Of a stretch of DNA of 10,633 nucleotides, positions 1-7,441 are shown piece after piece (the first letter of the stretch is position 1; each line of letters starts with the position of its first letter). The translations under genes and the position numbers were made by a program. Under the pieces are notes generated by a model that saw nothing but the letters and a program-made list of their open reading frames with translations, ran no database searches and was not told where the DNA came from. This stretch comes from Chlamydiota bacterium (lineage in GTDB: Bacteria > Auribacterota > Tritonobacteria > UBA1439). The DNA is taken from positions 1 through 10,633 of the forward strand of contig JBAXOY010000103.1 in the NCBI GenBank assembly GCA_037133055.1, given 5' to 3'.

Positions 1-255
1 GCCCCGCGGGCTCGAAATCCTCGCGCCGCCGGTCTCCGAACCGGTGGGCGCGGCGAACGGGAACGCGCGGATCCGCGAGCTGATCGGGCCGATCCGCGGC
101 GCCTTCCGCGCGGCGGTGTATCCGCTCATACTATTTCCCCTGGCATGGATGATGCTGAAGGCCGCGGCGCGGCATGCCTGCGCCCGCGCGCGCGGTGGAG
201 GGGAGGAGACGCGATGAAAATGGAGGCCCCCCGTGTCACCGTGGCGATCCCGTGC
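1..255 (+). repeat. GT2 junction direct repeat, copy 1
   Basis: 1-192 is identical to 1038-1229, and 203-255 is identical to 1258-1310. Copy 1 lacks 18 nt (6 codons) present in copy 2. Confidence 0.95.
2..217 (+). CDS. 3' end of an upstream gene, probably another GT2 paralogue (partial, 5'-truncated by window)
   Basis: Frame 2 reads PRGLEILAPPVSEPVGAANGNARIRELIGPIRGAFRAAVYPLILFPLAWMMLKAAARHACARARGGGEETR*. This matches the C-terminus of the next gene (nt 1-192 = 1038-1229). Stop TGA at 215-217 overlaps the next ATG (ATGA). The catalytic domain is outside the window. Confidence 0.75.
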   Translation, partial: PRGLEILAPPVSEPVGAANGNARIRELIGPIRGAFRAAVYPLILFPLAWMMLKAAARHACARARGGGEETR

Positions 256-1272
256 CATAACGGCGAACGGTTCCTTGCGCGCTCGATCGAGTCGGTCCTC
301 GCACAGGAATGCCCCGGGATCGAGATCGCGGTGTTCGACGACGGGTCCGACGACCGCTCGGTGGAGATCGCGAGGGTAGTCGATGACCCGCGGCTGACCG
401 TGAGGCAAACCCCGGCGCGGCTGGGGATCGGGGCGAACTGGAACCAGGGGCTCCGGCACGGGTCGGGGCCGTACGTGATCATCCATCACCAGGACGACGT
501 GATGGCGCCCGGGGCGATCGAGAAGAAGGCCGCCTTCATGGAGGCGCACCCCGGGGCGGGGTTCGTCTACTCGAGGATTGAGGCGATCGATGAGGAGGGG
601 AAGAAGCTGCCGGAGCAGTGGCACTGGTTCTCCAACGACCTTTTCGACCGGGACCGTCTCTTCGAATCCATTCCCTTCTTCATGGCGCTCCTCCTGGGGA
701 AGAACCTCATCTGCTGTCCCAGCGTGATGATGCGGCGGTCGGCGGCCCTCGAGATCGGCGGATTCAACGAGGCGATGGCGTTCACGCTGGACTGGGAGAT
801 GTGGCTCAGGATGGCGGCGGCGTACCCGGTGGGGTACGTGGATGCGGTGACGACCTACTACCGCTGTCACAAGAGGCAGGAGACGCAGCGGCACGTGGAC
901 CGGCAAGCGGAGCACAGCTATGACGCACGGATATCGGCGCTGCGGCGCTCTGCAGCAAGGGTCAACGCATGGCCCGCCTCGGAGGTGCTCGCCGAGATCG
1001 TCTCGCTCGTGCGGCAGATCGAGGAGCGGTCGCCCCTGCCCCGCGGGCTCGAAATCCTCGCGCCGCCGGTCTCCGAACCGGTGGGCGCGGCGAACGGGAA
1101 CGCGCGGATCCGCGAGCTGATCGGGCCGATCCGCGGCGCCTTCCGCGCGGCGGTGTATCCGCTCATACTATTTCCCCTGGCATGGATGATGCTGAAGGCC
1201 GCGGCGCGGCATGCCTGCGCCCGCGCGCGGGCCGGGAAGCGCGCGCGTGGCGGAGGAGAGGAGACGCGATGA
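214..1272 (+). CDS. Glycosyltransferase family 2 (GT-A fold) with hydrophobic/basic C-terminal tail, 352 aa
   Basis: Motifs VTVAIPCHNGE, VFDDGSDD, GIGANWN, HHQDD (DxD position), GGFNE and LDWEMWLR. Start placed at ATG 214 (MKMEAPRV) after a GGAGGAG RBS and an ATGA overlap, rather than at 145 as in the ORF track. Confidence 0.92.
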   Translation: MKMEAPRVTVAIPCHNGERFLARSIESVLAQECPGIEIAVFDDGSDDRSVEIARVVDDPRLTVRQTPARLGIGANWNQGLRHGSGPYVIIHHQDDVMAPGAIEKKAAFMEAHPGAGFVYSRIEAIDEEGKKLPEQWHWFSNDLFDRDRLFESIPFFMALLLGKNLICCPSVMMRRSAALEIGGFNEAMAFTLDWEMWLRMAAAYPVGYVDAVTTYYRCHKRQETQRHVDRQAEHSYDARISALRRSAARVNAWPASEVLAEIVSLVRQIEERSPLPRGLEILAPPVSEPVGAANGNARIRELIGPIRGAFRAAVYPLILFPLAWMMLKAAARHACARARAGKRARGGGEETR

Positions 1273-1310
1273 AAATGGAGGCCCCCCGTGTCACCGTGGC
1301 GATCCCGTGC
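990..1310 (+). repeat. GT2 junction direct repeat, copy 2
   Basis: Matches 1-255 as above. In addition, 990-1135 matches 2045-2190 with 3 mismatches in 146 nt. Confidence 0.95.
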
Positions 1311-2357
1311 GGCGACGGCGAGCGGTATATCGGCGAATCGATACGTTCTGTGCTGTGCCAGACCCACCGGAACATCGAAGTCCTCGTGATGGACCAGCAG
1401 TCGACGGACCGCACGCACCGCATCGCGGAGGATTTTCACGATCCGAGGCTCACGGTGCTCCGGAACCCGGTGTGCCTCAGCATCGGCGCGAACTGGAACC
1501 AGGGGCTCCGGCACGGCTCCGGGCCGTACGTGATCATCCACCACCAGGACGACGTGATGACCCCAGATTCGATCGCGAGGAAGGTCTCCTTCTTTGAGGC
1601 GCACCCGCAGGCGGGATTTGTCTACTCGAGGGTCGAAGTCATTGACGGGGAGGGCATGGCGCTTCCGGATCAGCGCCGCTGGTTCTCCAACGCCCTGTTT
1701 GACGGGGACCACCTCTTCGAATCCCTGCCCTTCTTTATGGCGCTCCTCCTCGGGAAAAACCTCATCTGCTGCCCCGGCGTGATGATGAAGCGGTCGGCGG
1801 CCCTCGGGGTGGGGGGGTTCAACGAGGAGATGCCGTTCACGCTCGACTGGGAGATGTGGCTGAGGATGGCGGCGGCGTATCCGGTCGGCTACGTGGATGC
1901 GGTGACCATGTGCTACCGCGTGCACCGCGGAATGGATTCCCTGAAGCATGTCGACCAAATCGCCAAGCACTCCTACGCCGCGCGGCTCTCCGCGGTCACG
2001 CGGTCGACGGCGCTCCTCGACCGCTGGGCCTCGGCCGACGTGTGCGCCGAGATCGTCTCGCTTGTGCGGCAGATCGAGGAGCGGTCGCCCCAGCCCCGCG
2101 GGCTCGAAATCCTCGCGCCGCCGGTCTCCGAACCGGTGGGCGCGGCGAACGGGAGCGCGCGGATCCGCGAGCTGATCGGGCCGATCCGCGATCCCCGCGA
2201 CCGCGTGGCGGCCCTCCTCCGCGAGGTGGCGCGCCTCGACGCCGACCGGGAGGCGCTGCGGGGACGCGTGAAAGAGTACGAGGAGTCCGCCTCGTTCAGG
2301 CTCGGGCGCCTGCTCCTCGCGCCGGTGCGGTGGATCCGCCGGACGCGTGATCGATAG
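1269..2357 (+). CDS. Glycosyltransferase family 2 paralogue with C-terminal coiled coil and SxSFRLGRLLLAPVR amphipathic tail, 362 aa
   Basis: Collinear with the previous gene at a constant 1055-nt offset and carries the same GT2 motifs. Start at ATG 1269 after a GAGGAG RBS, with ATGA overlap of the preceding stop. Confidence 0.92.
   Translation: MKMEAPRVTVAIPCGDGERYIGESIRSVLCQTHRNIEVLVMDQQSTDRTHRIAEDFHDPRLTVLRNPVCLSIGANWNQGLRHGSGPYVIIHHQDDVMTPDSIARKVSFFEAHPQAGFVYSRVEVIDGEGMALPDQRRWFSNALFDGDHLFESLPFFMALLLGKNLICCPGVMMKRSAALGVGGFNEEMPFTLDWEMWLRMAAAYPVGYVDAVTMCYRVHRGMDSLKHVDQIAKHSYAARLSAVTRSTALLDRWASADVCAEIVSLVRQIEERSPQPRGLEILAPPVSEPVGAANGSARIRELIGPIRDPRDRVAALLREVARLDADREALRGRVKEYEESASFRLGRLLLAPVRWIRRTRDR
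2045..2190 (+). repeat. GT2 junction direct repeat, copy 3 (partial)
   Basis: 146 nt matching 990-1135 (differences ctc/ctt, ctg/cag, aac/agc). Similarity ends abruptly after GGGCCGATCCGCG. Confidence 0.95.
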
Positions 2358-2595
2358 CATGGGGGAAGGGATACACTGCGGCCGGGATACTGCTTTAACG
2401 TAGCCCGCAGATGAACGCAGATCGTCAGGATAGACAGGATACAAAAGGGGGACAAAAGTGGCGGGATACCCGAATTGGACGCGGATTGTCGCGGATGAAC
2501 GCGGATCGCTTGAATAGGATGGATACAATGAAGCAACAGAGGATACATCATTCCGGACGTAGATTTCGCGGATGAACGCAGATAAAGAAGCCGCA

Positions 2596-2793
2596 TAACT
2601 ACTCAGATGGTCTGAAGTCAGGAGCCAGAATCCAGAATGGATCGCGAAAAAGCTTCCAGTAGCGTGCTGACCTCCTCGAGTAACTGCATTAACCCGGAAA
2701 CATCGCCGTAGCCCAAGTCCTCAAATATCAACGCCGGTGTCCTCATTCCGACTCCTGGCTCCTGACTCCTGAATTCTGGCTCCTGAGCAGTTA
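2596..2793. mobile_element. Inner cassette bounded by 11-bp terminal inverted repeats and inverted heptamer arrays
   Basis: TAACTACTCAG (2596-2606) pairs with CTGAGCAGTTA (2783-2793), 10/11. Heptamers TCAGGAG-CCAGAAT-CCAGAAT lie on the left and ACTCCTG-GCTCCTG-ACTCCTG-AATTCTG-GCTCCTG on the right. Perfect 14-bp IR at 2618-2631 / 2773-2786. No transposase is present, so mobility is inferred. Confidence 0.5.
2618..2746 (-). pseudogene. Four-helix-bundle protein (bAvd / 23S rRNA intervening-sequence protein family) remnant with large in-frame internal deletion, 42 aa
   Basis: Translates MRTPALIFEDL-GYGDVSGLMQLLEEVSTLLEAFSRSILDSGS*. The start resembles the family N-terminus (xxFEDLxVWQKA) and the rest resembles its C-terminus (xxDLGYGD...LEEVSxLLxxYxxxIL). 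The conserved core (LTSQxRRAAVSIxxNIAEG) is absent. An AGGAG RBS is supplied by the heptamer array. Confidence 0.7.
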
Positions 2794-3129
2794 CGAAACC
2801 GCACGGGATTTTCAAGAATGGATGGGACGCGGAGCCTTCTTCACTTCCCCCTTTTCCCCTTGAACTTTCATCCCTGAACCGTTGCGGTATCTGCGTGCTC
2901 TGCGTACATCTGCGTCCCAAAAGCCTTTATATCTTTGTTCCGCATTTTATCCGCGTGCATCCGCGTCCAAAGTCTCTTTGCCGTTTCCCTTTATGTCTTC
3001 ACGCCATGGTCTTATCCGCGTCCATCCTGACGATCTGCGTTCATCTGCGTCCCGGCGTTGAAGCACGTAACGCTGATGATTCGATGATTATTCAAGGTGT
3101 TATTCGAGGGTGCGCCGCGGCCGGATTTC

Positions 3130-3138
3130 TGGTACACT
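3130..3138 (+). promoter_or_regulatory. Putative extended -10 promoter (TGgTACACT) for the three-gene module
   Basis: TG-n-TACACT lies ~65 nt upstream of ATG 3203. No good -35 element is visible. GGAGGT RBS at 3190-3195. Confidence 0.4.
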
Positions 3139-3202
3139 AAGGCGCCACAATTGAACCGCGTCGGTATTCATTGCTCCGACCTGTTCCCGGGAGGTCGCCT
3201 GA

Positions 3203-3427
3203 ATGAAAGTAACGCTCGCCGTCGCCGCCGTGTTCGCCGCCGCCGCGTTGTCCCCGCCCTGTGCCTGCGCCTACCTTGACCCCGGCACGGGGAGCTACGT
3301 CGTCCAGGTCGTCATCGCGGCGCTCGTCGGGGGAGGGTTCGCCCTCAAGATATTCTGGAAGAGGATCTCCGACGCCCTCCGGCGCCTCTTCTCCCGCGGG
3401 GATACCGATGACACGGGTCGAAAATAG
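3203..3427 (+). CDS. Small membrane protein of the 'YLDPGTGS' family (signal peptide + conserved motif + TM helix + basic tail), 74 aa
   Basis: GGAGGT RBS 7 nt upstream. Signal-like MKVTLAVAAVFAAAALSPPCACA, then YLDPGTGS, hydrophobic YVVQVVIAALVGGGFALKIFW and basic KRI...RRLF. Overlaps the next gene by 20 nt. Confidence 0.8.
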   Translation: MKVTLAVAAVFAAAALSPPCACAYLDPGTGSYVVQVVIAALVGGGFALKIFWKRISDALRRLFSRGDTDDTGRK

Positions 3428-4793
3428 CGCGCGGGTCCCCGGCTCGTTCCGCGACCCGAGCGGCTTCCTTTTTCGGCGTGAGGGGATCCTTTACCGCCGG
3501 ATCAACCCGGCGTACCGCGCGCACTACGACCGGTTGATGGGGTCGGGGCTGTATGACGACCTCGTCCAGGCGGGGCTCCTCATTCCGCACCGCGAGGCCG
3601 CCATTCCCGGCGAGGCCGCGCCCCCCGGCTGCGTATTCATACAGCCCGAGGTCGTGCCCTTCATCTCATATCCGTACGAATGGTGTTTCAGCCAGCTCAG
3701 GGATGCGGCCCTCGCCACGCTGGAGATCCAGAGGCGCGCGCTCGACCGCGGCATGACCCTGAAGGACTCGAGCGCCTTCAACATACAGTTCGTCAGGGGG
3801 AAACCGGCGCTCATCGACACCCTCTCCTTCGAGGAGTACCGGGAGGGGGCGCCGTGGGTCGCCTACCGGCAGTTCTGCCAGCATTTCCTCGCGCCGCTCG
3901 CCCTGATGAGCCGCACGGATGTCAGGCTCGGGCAGCTCTCCCGGATTTTCCTGGACGGGGTGCCGATGGATCTCGCGAGCGCGCTCCTCCCCCGGTCGAC
4001 CCGGCTCCGGTTTTCTCTCCTCACGCACATCCACCTGCACGCGCGGGCGCAGAAAATGTGCGCGCGGAGCGAGGGCAAGGCGAGGGCCGGCACGCTCTCG
4101 CGCTTCAGCTTTCTCGCGCTCGTGGACAGTTTGAGGACCGCGGTCGGGCGCCTGCGGCGCGAGCCCGGCGGGACCGAGTGGGGGGAGTACTACGACGCCA
4201 CGAACTACTCCGCGGAATCGCTCGCGCACAAGAAGAGGCTCGTGGGCGAATTCCTCGACATCCTCCGCCCCCGCAGCGTCTGGGACATGGGGGCGAACAC
4301 GGGGATGTTCAGCAGGATCGCGGGCGGGAAGGGCATCCCGACCGTGGCGATGGACGGCGATCCCTCCGCGGTGGAGATGAACTACCGGCAGTGCAGGAAC
4401 GAGAACGAGGAGCGGATCCTCCCGCTTCTGATCGACCTCACGAACCCGAGCCCCGCCGTCGGCTGGGCCCACGAGGAGAGGATGTCGCTCGCAGAGCGGG
4501 GGCCGGCGGACGCGGTCATGGCGCTGGCTCTGGTCCACCACCTCGCCATCTCCAACAACACCCCGCTCCCTGACATCGCGCGCTTCCTCAGCCGCCTCGG
4601 GAACTCGCTCATCATCGAGTTCGTCCCGAAGGGGGACTCCAACGCCCGGCGGCTGCTCTCGACGCGCGAGGACATCTTTCCCGACTACGCGGAGGGCCCT
4701 TTCGAGGCCGCGTTCGGGGGGCATTTCGCCGTCGAGAAACGATCCCCCGTCCCGGGCACGGAGAGGACGCTCTACCTGATGAGGAAGAGATGA
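3408..4793 (+). CDS. NoeA-like protein: N-terminal kinase-like domain + C-terminal class I SAM-dependent methyltransferase, 461 aa
   Basis: SFRDPSG, ISYPYEW, LKDSSAFNIQF, IDTLSF and WVAYRQFCQHFLAPL are NoeA-family signatures as recalled. SAM motif I WDMGANTG at 4281-4304; also ALALVHHL and IIEFVP. Start placed at ATG 3408. Confidence 0.85.
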   Translation: MTRVENSARVPGSFRDPSGFLFRREGILYRRINPAYRAHYDRLMGSGLYDDLVQAGLLIPHREAAIPGEAAPPGCVFIQPEVVPFISYPYEWCFSQLRDAALATLEIQRRALDRGMTLKDSSAFNIQFVRGKPALIDTLSFEEYREGAPWVAYRQFCQHFLAPLALMSRTDVRLGQLSRIFLDGVPMDLASALLPRSTRLRFSLLTHIHLHARAQKMCARSEGKARAGTLSRFSFLALVDSLRTAVGRLRREPGGTEWGEYYDATNYSAESLAHKKRLVGEFLDILRPRSVWDMGANTGMFSRIAGGKGIPTVAMDGDPSAVEMNYRQCRNENEERILPLLIDLTNPSPAVGWAHEERMSLAERGPADAVMALALVHHLAISNNTPLPDIARFLSRLGNSLIIEFVPKGDSNARRLLSTREDIFPDYAEGPFEAAFGGHFAVEKRSPVPGTERTLYLMRKR

Positions 4794-7441
4794 CGGCGGG
4801 GATCCCCCCGAGGGAACGGTTCGTCACGCTCCTCTGCGTCGCATCCTTCCTCGCGTGCACGCTGTTCCTCTTCGGGCCGCTGCACCTCTATTTCACCAAC
4901 AGGGTGGAATTCTACAGCGTCCCGGTTGAGATACTCCCCCCACTGGCCGCGGTCTGCCTCACCGCGGCGGGCGTGATCATGCTCGCCTGCATCGCGCTCC
5001 CCCCGCGGCTCTTCAAGAAGGCCGTCGCGGTCGCGGTCATGACCGGCGTGCTCTTCTGGCTTCAGGGGAACGTGTGTGTCTGGAGGGTAGGGGTGCTGAA
5101 CGGCAGGGAGATCCCCTGGTCGGCCCATCGCGTCTACGGTTTCGTGGACGGCACGCTCTGGGCCGCCCTGCTCGCGGTCGCGCTCGTGAAGTCGGACCAT
5201 ATGTACCGAATCGCCCGCCGGGCAAGCGCGGCATTCCTCCTGATACAGCTCATCGCGGTGACCGTCTCCGCCGCGCGCGCCCCGAAGGGGATGAGCTCCA
5301 ACGACTATACCTCCGATGACGCCCTGAAGTTCACCTTCTCGAACAGGCAGAATGTCATCATCCTCGTGATCGACACGCTGCAAGGCGACGTCTTCCAGGA
5401 GATCGTGGACGGCGACGACCGTTACCGGGACGTCTTTTCCGGATTCACCTACTTCCGGAACGCGGTCGGGGGATACCCGACGACGTATCCCTCCGTGCCC
5501 CTCATCCTGACGGGACGGTACTATGACAACTCGGTCCCCATCCAGGAGTTCATAGAGACGGCGTTTTCCACGAACTCCCTCCCCCGGACCCTGCGCACGC
5601 TCGGATGGAGGGTCACCCTGCCGCTGAGTTATTATATTTACAACAGCGAGGACATTGCCTCGAATCTGAAAAAGAGGCCCCTCGCCCCGTTTTACGAGGG
5701 GAACCTGGGGTATGCGGCGGATCTCTACGACGCCGCCCTGCTCCGGTATGCCCCCTATTTCGCGAAGAAATACGTCTACGCGAACGGGCGCGGGCGCGTG
5801 AAGCCTTTCTACGCGTCCCGCGTCAGGGCCGCCCGCGCGGAGAGCGCCGCGTCCCCCCGCGGGGCCGCCTCGTCGAATCCCGATGTGGAGTTCATCGAGG
5901 AAATGGCGCGCGGCGCACACGCGAGCGACGCCCCGGACACGTTCGCCTATTATCATCTGGTCGGCCTTCATCCCCCGTTCACCCTCAACGAAAACCTGGG
6001 GAACGAAGAGATGCCGTATTCCCGGGAGAGCTACACGCGCCAGGCGCGCGGCATGCTGAAGATTGCGGAGGAGTTCGTCTCCACGCTCCGGAGGATAGGC
6101 GTCTACGACAAGAGCATGGTGTGCATCATCGCCGACCACGGTTTCGGGTTCCCCCTGCCGCGCTCCTTCTGCGCGGAGGGGGGAGGGGTGCGCGGCCATC
6201 GCACGGTCGCGGATGACAGTATTATCGGCACCGGGGTCCCCCTCATCCTCGTGAAACCGTTCGGGGCGCAGGGGAGGATGCGCGTGAGCGACGCCCCGGT
6301 GACCCTCGCCGATATCCCCGCGACCGTTGCCTCCGCGCTCGGCGTCGCACACGCATTCCCCGGCGAGTCGGTTTTCCAGAGGAGCGCGAAGGAGCCCCGC
6401 GAGCGGCGGTTTCTCTTCTACGATTGGGAGGACAAGTGGTACGCCGACTATCTCCCCCGGATGACGGAGTATGTCGTGCGCGGATTCAGCGGGTGCGCGG
6501 AGTCGTGGGCGCCGACGGGCAGGCGGTTCTCGCCCCCTTCCCCCGCGGCAGCCCCGGCGGTCTACACGCCGGGAACGGAGATAACCTTCGGAGAGAGTGG
6601 CACGTACCGGCAGTATGCGGGCGAGGGCTGGAGTTTCCCCAAGGGGGCGTCCACGTTTACCAAGGGAAAATCCGCTTCGCTCCGGATTCCGCTCCGCCCT
6701 CTCCGCACGCCCCTCATGATGAGGGTGTCGCTCTGGCCATTCCTCCCTCCGGGCACGGGGAAGGCGCAGAGGGTGGGAGTGTATGTCAACAACCACAAGG
6801 TGGCGGACTGGGAGGCGGTTCCGCAGCAACCGGAGTATAGCGCCTTTATCCCCCCGGACATGCTCGCCGGCGGTGCGCTGACTGTCCGTTTCGATCTCCC
6901 GGACGCGGTATCTCCCCTTGACGCGGGCCTCAGCCGCGACCATCGCACGCTGGGGATTTTGGTGCGGCGCATGACCCTGTGGGCGCTGAAGCCCTATGAC
7001 TACGGTACGCGCATCACCTTCGGTGCGGGCGGCGATTCGGTCCCGTACGAGGAATCGGGCTGGAGCTTTCCCGAGACGGGATACACGTGGACAAGCGGGA
7101 ATCGCGCGTCCCTGCTGATCCCGCTGCCCCCCCCCGCGTCGGATCTTGTCCTGCGGGCGGTCTTGAAGCCCCTGCGCATTGCGGAACGGGTGGACGCGCA
7201 GAGGGTGTACATCGGCGTGAACGGAAAGAGGGCGGGAGAGTGGCGGGTGGGCGCGGAAGGGGAATACCGAGTCGAGATACCCAAAAGCGTCATCGAAGGT
7301 CCCACCTCGCTCTTCTCCTTCGACCTGCCGGACGCATTCTCGCCGCCGGCGAAAGACGGACGCACGAGTCCCCGCCTGCTGGGGGTGCGATTCTACTCGG
7401 TGCGGCTGTCGCGCAAGGAGCCGCCCCCTCTCCTGAAATGA
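4790..7441 (+). CDS. Membrane-anchored alkaline-phosphatase-superfamily (sulfatase-like / LtaS-OpgB-EptA-type) transferase with two tandem C-terminal beta-rich domains, 883 aa
   Basis: About 5 N-terminal hydrophobic helices. NVIILVIDTLQ (metal Asp), GGYPTTYPS (Thr nucleophile position), HLVGLHPPF and IIADHG. ATGA overlap with the previous gene. Confidence 0.85.
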   Translation: MTAGIPPRERFVTLLCVASFLACTLFLFGPLHLYFTNRVEFYSVPVEILPPLAAVCLTAAGVIMLACIALPPRLFKKAVAVAVMTGVLFWLQGNVCVWRVGVLNGREIPWSAHRVYGFVDGTLWAALLAVALVKSDHMYRIARRASAAFLLIQLIAVTVSAARAPKGMSSNDYTSDDALKFTFSNRQNVIILVIDTLQGDVFQEIVDGDDRYRDVFSGFTYFRNAVGGYPTTYPSVPLILTGRYYDNSVPIQEFIETAFSTNSLPRTLRTLGWRVTLPLSYYIYNSEDIASNLKKRPLAPFYEGNLGYAADLYDAALLRYAPYFAKKYVYANGRGRVKPFYASRVRAARAESAASPRGAASSNPDVEFIEEMARGAHASDAPDTFAYYHLVGLHPPFTLNENLGNEEMPYSRESYTRQARGMLKIAEEFVSTLRRIGVYDKSMVCIIADHGFGFPLPRSFCAEGGGVRGHRTVADDSIIGTGVPLILVKPFGAQGRMRVSDAPVTLADIPATVASALGVAHAFPGESVFQRSAKEPRERRFLFYDWEDKWYADYLPRMTEYVVRGFSGCAESWAPTGRRFSPPSPAAAPAVYTPGTEITFGESGTYRQYAGEGWSFPKGASTFTKGKSASLRIPLRPLRTPLMMRVSLWPFLPPGTGKAQRVGVYVNNHKVADWEAVPQQPEYSAFIPPDMLAGGALTVRFDLPDAVSPLDAGLSRDHRTLGILVRRMTLWALKPYDYGTRITFGAGGDSVPYEESGWSFPETGYTWTSGNRASLLIPLPPPASDLVLRAVLKPLRIAERVDAQRVYIGVNGKRAGEWRVGAEGEYRVEIPKSVIEGPTSLFSFDLPDAFSPPAKDGRTSPRLLGVRFYSVRLSRKEPPPLLK
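6563..7408 (+). repeat. Intragenic tandem domain duplication (~138 aa x 2: 6563-6979 and 6995-7408)
   Basis: Both copies read YxxGTxITFGxxG...GWSFP...TxTxGxxASLxIPL...AQRVxxxVN...W...EY...IP...FDLPDAxSP...RxLG. Confidence 0.9.

Follow-up and report, generated by a model that had tools for sequence, protein, structure and literature searches.

How a long palindrome of nested repeats came to stand between two protein genes, and whether it behaves as mobile DNA or as RNA, is the question raised by the window analysed here, a contig of 10,633 nucleotides (C103) from a genome of 2.99 Mb that is 92% complete. The palindrome follows a GT2-family glycosyltransferase gene (1269..2357, plus strand) and precedes a conserved gene for a small protein of 74 aa (3203..3427, plus strand), and its region has a G+C content of 52% against 66% for the window. 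We lean towards an answer in which two unrelated non-autonomous elements are stacked on one another, the outer spread by a GxxExxY protein and the inner by an IS66-type enzyme, an overall reading that we hold with moderate confidence. The host context has features of its own. GT2 paralogues stand in tandem in the window (1-192, 1038-1229 and 2093-2284; period 1,037-1,055 bp), the first two of these stretches are 100% identical, the contig begins within a GT2 repeat, and the C-terminus of copy 1 is unlike that of copy 2, a pattern that points to a recent duplication, to conversion or to a join made in assembly. Downstream, window 3203-7441 holds the 74-aa gene, whose product has 0 matches in Pfam or NCBIfam, a methyltransferase-like gene and a sulfatase-fold membrane protein of 883 aa; the 74-aa and methyltransferase-like genes are kept together in several genomes of the phylum.

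The inverted repeats described in an earlier note on this DNA are real. The outermost pair (2391-2400/3056-3065) matches at 9/10 positions, the perfect 26-bp repeat (2406-2431/3024-3049) forms a terminal stem within 30 bp at 97%, and the two inner pairs (2475-2506/2949-2970 and 2555-2584/2888-2917) are pairs of decamer words. The left arm is indeed purine-rich and the right arm pyrimidine-rich (purine fractions 0.63 and 0.33), and the folding comparison that the note had proposed came out as it expected: the region folds better than dinucleotide shuffles as plus-strand RNA (z -11.1), minus-strand RNA (z -5.7) and DNA (z -9.7), with 0/20 shuffles folding as well in each case. The loose complementarity seen between the spacers did not survive: six left/right spacer pairs gave scores within the range of shuffled spacers (p 0.19-0.80), and when the spacers alone were shuffled, the words, terminal stems and inner cassette staying unchanged, z was -1.75 and 2/40 shuffles were as good. 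Spacer complementarity is base composition only. The limits first assigned to the palindrome, 2391..3065, are close to ours and need extension, in that conservation on the right continues to ~3072 and REP-like sequence, now decayed, lies next to each end.

The inner element is an IS66/ISBst12-type MITE of 200 bp (2595..2794), in which terminal repeats (2595-2606/2783-2794) are followed inwards by heptamer arms (2611-2639/2744-2772). Formerly placed in the central loop, it actually interrupts the third module of the left arm, and the earlier view that the locus lacks a target duplication stands for the outer element and fails for this inner cassette, which lies between 8-bp copies, GAAGCCGC at 2587..2594 and GAAACCGC at 2795..2802 (both plus strand, 7/8 identical). 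On the minus strand it carries a four-helix-bundle gene (PF05635/TIGR02436; 2618..2746) with an in-frame internal deletion that leaves 42/121 codons. By itself the 42-aa remnant has 0 matches in NCBIfam and Pfam, and its identity comes from DNA alignment to an intact copy, a 444-bp cassette (G000:C135:447-890) with an intact PF05635/TIGR02436 gene; in that alignment the window copy has lost 79 codons, the deletion falling at a 9-nt microhomology. Copies comprise 21 paired short forms (137-200 bp) and the 444-bp parent, besides 15 unpaired ends, some of another family. An 8-bp duplication with no more than one mismatch is present in 15/22 paired copies, as against 0/462 cross pairs, and the peak is at 8 bp only, other lengths being without signal. 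In the intact parent the duplication shows 3 mismatches, in three copies from other genera it is perfect, and a paralogous empty site is 208 bp shorter. The inner 200 bp are a MITE, a deleted form of the 444-bp four-helix-bundle cassette, inserted with an 8-bp duplication.

Its ends (ATAACTACTCAG / GTAACTGCTCAG) can be set beside those of ISDge4 (GTGACTACTCAGCA / GTAACTGCTCAGCA), which belongs to the ISBst12 group of the IS66 family and whose transposition gives an 8-bp repeat, according to the relevant part of PMC12898284. Mobilisation in trans by an ISBst12-type DDE transposase is very probable. A search of the genome, 92% complete, found no gene for an IS66 transposase (PF03050), and the exact ends of the MITE occur at 0/21 IS66 loci of relatives, drawn from 8 of 41 genomes. 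The inner element is also present in G003, G006 and G007; the last, a genome of the same family that is rich in the 200-bp MITE, has a single-gene IS66 (L025:611-2450, on G007:C53) with ends, GTAATGGGTCAG, that are alike but not identical to those of the MITE, making it a candidate, if imperfect, trans partner. Two further four-helix-bundle genes of the window's own genome have word arms of their own (C91:2447-3267, with a 9-base GAAGGGTGT-type word, and C60:10929-11587, with a 7-base TAAGCCG-type word); no GTAAC ends were seen there, and the C60 gene is internally deleted.

The remaining 480 bp form the outer element (2393..3072), a gene-less decamer-word palindrome and a member of a dispersed modular word family that is associated with GxxExxY genes. 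Its arms are built from rows of a 10-base word and purine-rich spacers, arranged as modules that all point inward. Three lie on the plus strand: the left terminal module B (2393..2476), which contains the 26-bp arm 2406-2431; module M (2477..2554), which is missing from the C85 paralogue and stands on the opposite arm in C12, C107 and C146; and module G (2555..2834), which the MITE interrupts and whose 3' part resumes at 2795 and runs to a degenerate word end near 2824-2834. Facing them on the minus strand are module A (2836..2917), innermost in the right arm, with a head like the words that surround the start codon in the GxxExxY gene of C122; module E (2918..2970, ~57 bp), missing from paralogues C8, C13 and C85; and the right terminal module C (2971..3072), in which lie the 26-bp arm 3024-3049 and, extending to ~3072, the conserved end. 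Both ends abut decayed REP sequence of CGTC/TGTC type, on the left the 3' half of a hairpin (2368..2392, plus strand), where a REP adjoins this end in intact paralogues such as C85 and C79, and on the right the end of a REP (3073..3082, minus strand) that is intact at this position in C13, C23, C85, C154 and C160; the family assignment goes by resemblance to CGTC-1 as it is described in a part of PMC3733652.

Across the genome the word pair yields 288 matches in 95 clusters, compared with 2-3 in shuffles, so that the non-autonomous hairpin family proposed in the earlier note is borne out, as is its expectation that the motif would be multicopy and not randomly oriented: wherever a cluster holds both orientations the arms face inward (34/34). 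In the other 61 clusters, of which 14 lie at contig edges, the words run in a single orientation; a degenerate opposite arm is present in only 10/46 one-orientation clusters. By gene calls from our own codon model 94/95 clusters are intergenic, and the orientation of the flanking genes is unbiased. Clustering of the sequence that follows each head gives ~24 module types genome-wide, of 50-90 bp and interchangeable between copies. Modules such as M and E are gained or lost singly on one arm, switch arms (M is on the right in some copies) and occur in unequal numbers. The ends of the element are ragged. Neither a target rule nor a target duplication was found, none being common to 22 end pairs at 2-12 bp at any offset, and the ends, which bring integron attC cores to mind, fit the consensus of those cores poorly. 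At C111:1-330 and C166:2513-2800 three minimal hairpin units of 107 bp follow one another head-to-tail, like tandem REPINs, and those on C111 stand directly upstream of its GxxExxY gene. Other word families occur at the same sites, with 18/52 TTGAAC heptamer pairs and 11/46 CACGRAG pairs lying within 150 bp of a decamer cluster (decamer clusters cover 1.5% of the genome), and certain module spacers are themselves arms of other word families, of the TTGAAC/CACGRAG kind.

The locus is useful because natural paralogues show the order in which it was assembled stepwise. In a series of ~90% identity, C85 has modules B-G then A-C, C13 has M in addition, C8 has gained the 200-bp insert and 8 bp, and the window has gained E. 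The window and C8 have the same insert at the same site and share their interior, with different flanks. The outer element and its MITE thus occur together at two unrelated sites, and copying or conversion, acting on the composite as a whole, came after the MITE had inserted. Empty sites, which the earlier note had hoped to see in relatives, exist at other loci, with none for the window locus, which has no syntenic orthologue among 40 relatives. Of 14 other loci retrieved, six were queried, and one of these (C17) gave no two-flank comparison; at the other five the syntenic gap in relatives is shorter and without the word pair in 11/11 comparisons, for example 295 bp in this genome and 23 bp in a relative, or 381 and 54. 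These relatives, at 70-89% in genes, are too distant to yield exact junctions. Five relatives have copies of the downstream genes, and no word pair occurs near these. Across 41 genomes the word motif numbers between 0 and 276 copies; one congener, only 80% complete, has none. Copies were gained in this lineage. Contigs from four environmental runs, which drop rare variants, showed no circle, excision joint or whole-element empty allele. A joint 2586-2795, with 200+8 bp removed, is present in run X4, and MITE-less loose ends in X1, X2 and X4; the joint and the loose ends alike may derive from paralogues and were therefore not counted as alleles.

Which enzyme might serve the outer element is suggested by the genes that the family encloses. 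The earlier note stated, correctly, that such decamer repeats flank GxxExxY and four-helix-bundle genes, and both GxxExxY genes of this genome lie inside word arms (C111:335-661 and C122:7590-7913). The exact 26-base arm occurs in 15 stretches of other genomes, with hosts among Desulfobacterales, Syntrophaceae, Scalinduaceae, Verrucomicrobiota, WOR-3 and others; one of the 15 (L082) has a GxxExxY gene, and there the arm, the same as that of module B, encodes the N-terminus of the protein. Inverted arms, at p up to 0.01 and with words of 9-11 bases, are present at 29 of 32 GxxExxY loci (the 29 top-scoring of the matches listed, the two of this genome, and L082). In a protein tree whose rows begin after the arms, a single branch parts 15 GAT-type from 17 GAG/AAG-type loci with support of 98/96, word labels having been set by eye and L060 (CCGAAT) put in the GAT class; on the same tree finer word classes need 16 changes, versus 23.2 when shuffled, and host family needs 17. 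All 13 genomes with at least eight motif hits have a GxxExxY gene, and none of the 16 without one has more than one hit, counts in which kin are not independent; 12/25 genomes with the gene have few copies of this word, and where examined use other words. G017, of the same phylum, has 19 GxxExxY matches, many of them broken by stops, and no occurrence of this word; the one locus examined there has a CGCAAAG word. Gene-bearing members of the family enclose a GxxExxY PD-(D/E)XK gene.

The partner protein belongs to PF13366 (E 1e-40). The catalytic residues D76 and K88 are invariant and E86 is present in at least 90% of the 32 GxxExxY proteins, leaving the D...ExK motif intact, and the predicted model (pLDDT 90) matches a minimal restriction-endonuclease-like fold. 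A fold search returned generic matches, the best at Z 8.4, with no single homologue standing out and Holliday-junction resolvases at Z 5-6 among many others; a sequence search of solved structures gave non-significant matches only (E 0.096 and 2). By predicted fold and by motif the partner is of the PD-(D/E)XK nuclease type, and nuclease activity is predicted. The family, as PDDEXK_3, is listed as of function unknown with multiple transfers in the part of PMC3424549 that deals with it. The note was right that the element contains no transposase. The HUH/RAYT or tyrosine-recombinase partner that it had proposed to look for did not materialise, as the nearest RAYT-type gene is 2,997 bp from any cluster. 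The genome has eight such genes (PF01797), and genome-wide no tyrosine-recombinase, RAYT or GIY-YIG gene is bracketed by the word repeat. The recombinase gene nearest to the family, 536 bp away from an isolated head, looks like an ordinary gene of XerC type.

We think it likely that the outer element originated in a GxxExxY cassette; whether the GxxExxY nuclease also mobilised it is close to an even call, on which we stay slightly to the cautious side. Under this model, the GxxExxY protein would recognise its own word array when the arms pair, as hairpin or cruciform, and would cut at the paired arms, and host repair would insert copies in intergenic DNA without target duplication, a step that we liken to the action of RAYT on REPINs. 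Recombination between repeated heads would add, remove and swap modules, an ISBst12-group DDE transposase would have moved the inner element in trans, and the palindrome would be a by-product of facing arms rather than an evolved RNA structure. A bolder proposal, possible rather than probable, is that GxxExxY is the mobilising enzyme of an undescribed class of selfish element: a PD-(D/E)XK protein of 120 residues, unrelated to DDE, HUH, serine or tyrosine enzymes, that would read a lineage-specific tandem word in paired arms and spread its own cassette together with scores of gene-less modular palindromes across phyla, the palindromes then offering safe landing sites to others such as the IS66-type four-helix-bundle cassette.

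The arms and the GxxExxY gene could instead be passengers, spread through bracketing doublets of CGTC-type REPs, by another transposase, or by gene conversion or recombination. Intact TGTC-REP matches directly adjoin the end sequence of the outer element in 11/12 cases and the C85 paralogue has one at each of its two ends, so that the REPs adjoining many outer ends could be the true mobile ends; four other word families also cluster near the elements, and the window and C8 share interior but not flanks. Most ends, however, have no REP, copies in distant genomes have the word arm without it, and CGTC REPs are reported without a dedicated transposase in the relevant part of PMC3733652. The match of word to nuclease on the protein tree is, moreover, not explained by hitch-hiking, and we consider the passenger account unlikely.

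The arms might also be selected as RNA, RNase III cutting the long stem as in 23S rRNA IVS and the product segmenting or stabilising the operon transcript, an idea to which we give little credence. It is consistent with the strong predicted fold, with the excision by RNase III of IVS elements that carry the same four-helix-bundle family (in the part of PMC4990558 devoted to them), and with the purine-rich word lying on the sense strand in 30/33 one-orientation clusters between co-directional genes, for which we offer no explanation. Yet within one element the two 26-bp arms are no more alike than arms taken from different elements (p 0.43), spacer pairing is compositional, the terminal arms keep no fixed polarity to transcription (B 11 sense/9 antisense; C 15/8), and orthologous operons lack the insert. 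An Rfam scan of 2300-3250 gave 0 matches at E up to 1, and a promoter and terminator scan found none. In contigs of the one RNA run, X15, the element is almost without coverage, which speaks neither way. At the window locus the structured-RNA reading has no positive support. A reading of the words as CsrA sites was set aside, the genome being without PF02599.

That the locus is an insertion platform of glycan loci, built up in concentric order by four hairpin elements each entering the one before it, is very improbable: the repeat pairs are nested in order and one true passenger, the MITE, was taken up, but modules come and go on a single arm, switch arms and differ in number, and therefore the concentric pairs are not successive insertions, nor are the clusters specific to glycan loci (19/95 have a GT1/GT2 gene no more than 5 kb away, where 14.5 would be expected; p 0.13), glycosyltransferase genes being enriched genome-wide near neither word clusters nor MITEs.

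Two widespread protein families whose function is unknown gain testable roles here. The GxxExxY protein comes with a matched DNA word and therefore with a defined substrate to test; should it prove to mobilise its arms, it would represent a new type of transposition enzyme and the smallest of its sort, and the pairing of GxxExxY with arms may amount to a mode of DNA spread that is so far undescribed. Here an IS66-type cassette carries the four-helix-bundle '23S-IVS protein' as its cargo. This provides one way in which the protein could have reached its scattered hosts, and is relevant to the idea that rRNA IVS are transposition remnants, one hypothesis listed for their origin in the pertinent part of PMC4990558. 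In a search of mostly open literature, at the level of main text, we found no published description of the GxxExxY-word-arm pairing or of the four-helix-bundle-IS66 pairing.

Among known systems the outer element comes closest to REPIN/RAYT, as these are described in PMC3337134: both comprise intergenic inverted doublets, long hairpins and tandem higher-order arrays, vary in copy number by lineage, and pair many gene-less copies with an enzyme gene, present once or twice, that the same repeat flanks. The outer element shares with REPINs the multicopy intergenic hairpin doublet but neither the palindromic REP unit nor the RAYT gene, its arms being tandem non-palindromic 10-base words rather than short palindromic REPs, the flanked gene encoding a PD-(D/E)XK protein of PF13366 instead of an HUH Y1 transposase, and the arm being able to encode the start of the gene. 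The BIMEs of enterobacteria are mosaic intergenic arrays of a repeated head and a small set of interchangeable spacers, whose units alternate in orientation. The outer arrays resemble them in this mosaic of repeated head and interchangeable spacers, and differ in that all modules of an arm point inward, with 0 outward-facing pairs. With CGTC-tagged REPs and dRS3, as set out in part of PMC3733652, the locus shares TGTC-tagged short hairpins with a CCA-type tail that adjoin the outer ends in several copies; in contrast to those systems, the window has only decayed remnants, which are neighbours of the outer element rather than its body.

The inner cassette resembles the ORF-bearing 23S rRNA IVS (S23p; the corresponding part of PMC4990558) in placing a PF05635 protein between terminal inverted repeats, and departs from them in standing between protein genes, being multicopy and having IS66 ends with target duplications. 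Like ISDge4 it has the end GTAACTGCTCAG over 12/12 bases and an 8-bp duplication (PMC12898284, in part), and like IS-derived MITEs it occurs at unrelated targets without a transposase; in contrast to IS66, a four-helix-bundle gene with heptamer arrays takes the place of the transposase in its full-length parent. Whereas the outer element lacks the sharp ends with target-site duplication of a classical MITE, the inner element has three traits of an IS66 MITE: terminal repeats, an 8-bp duplication, and a short, multicopy and transposase-free form.
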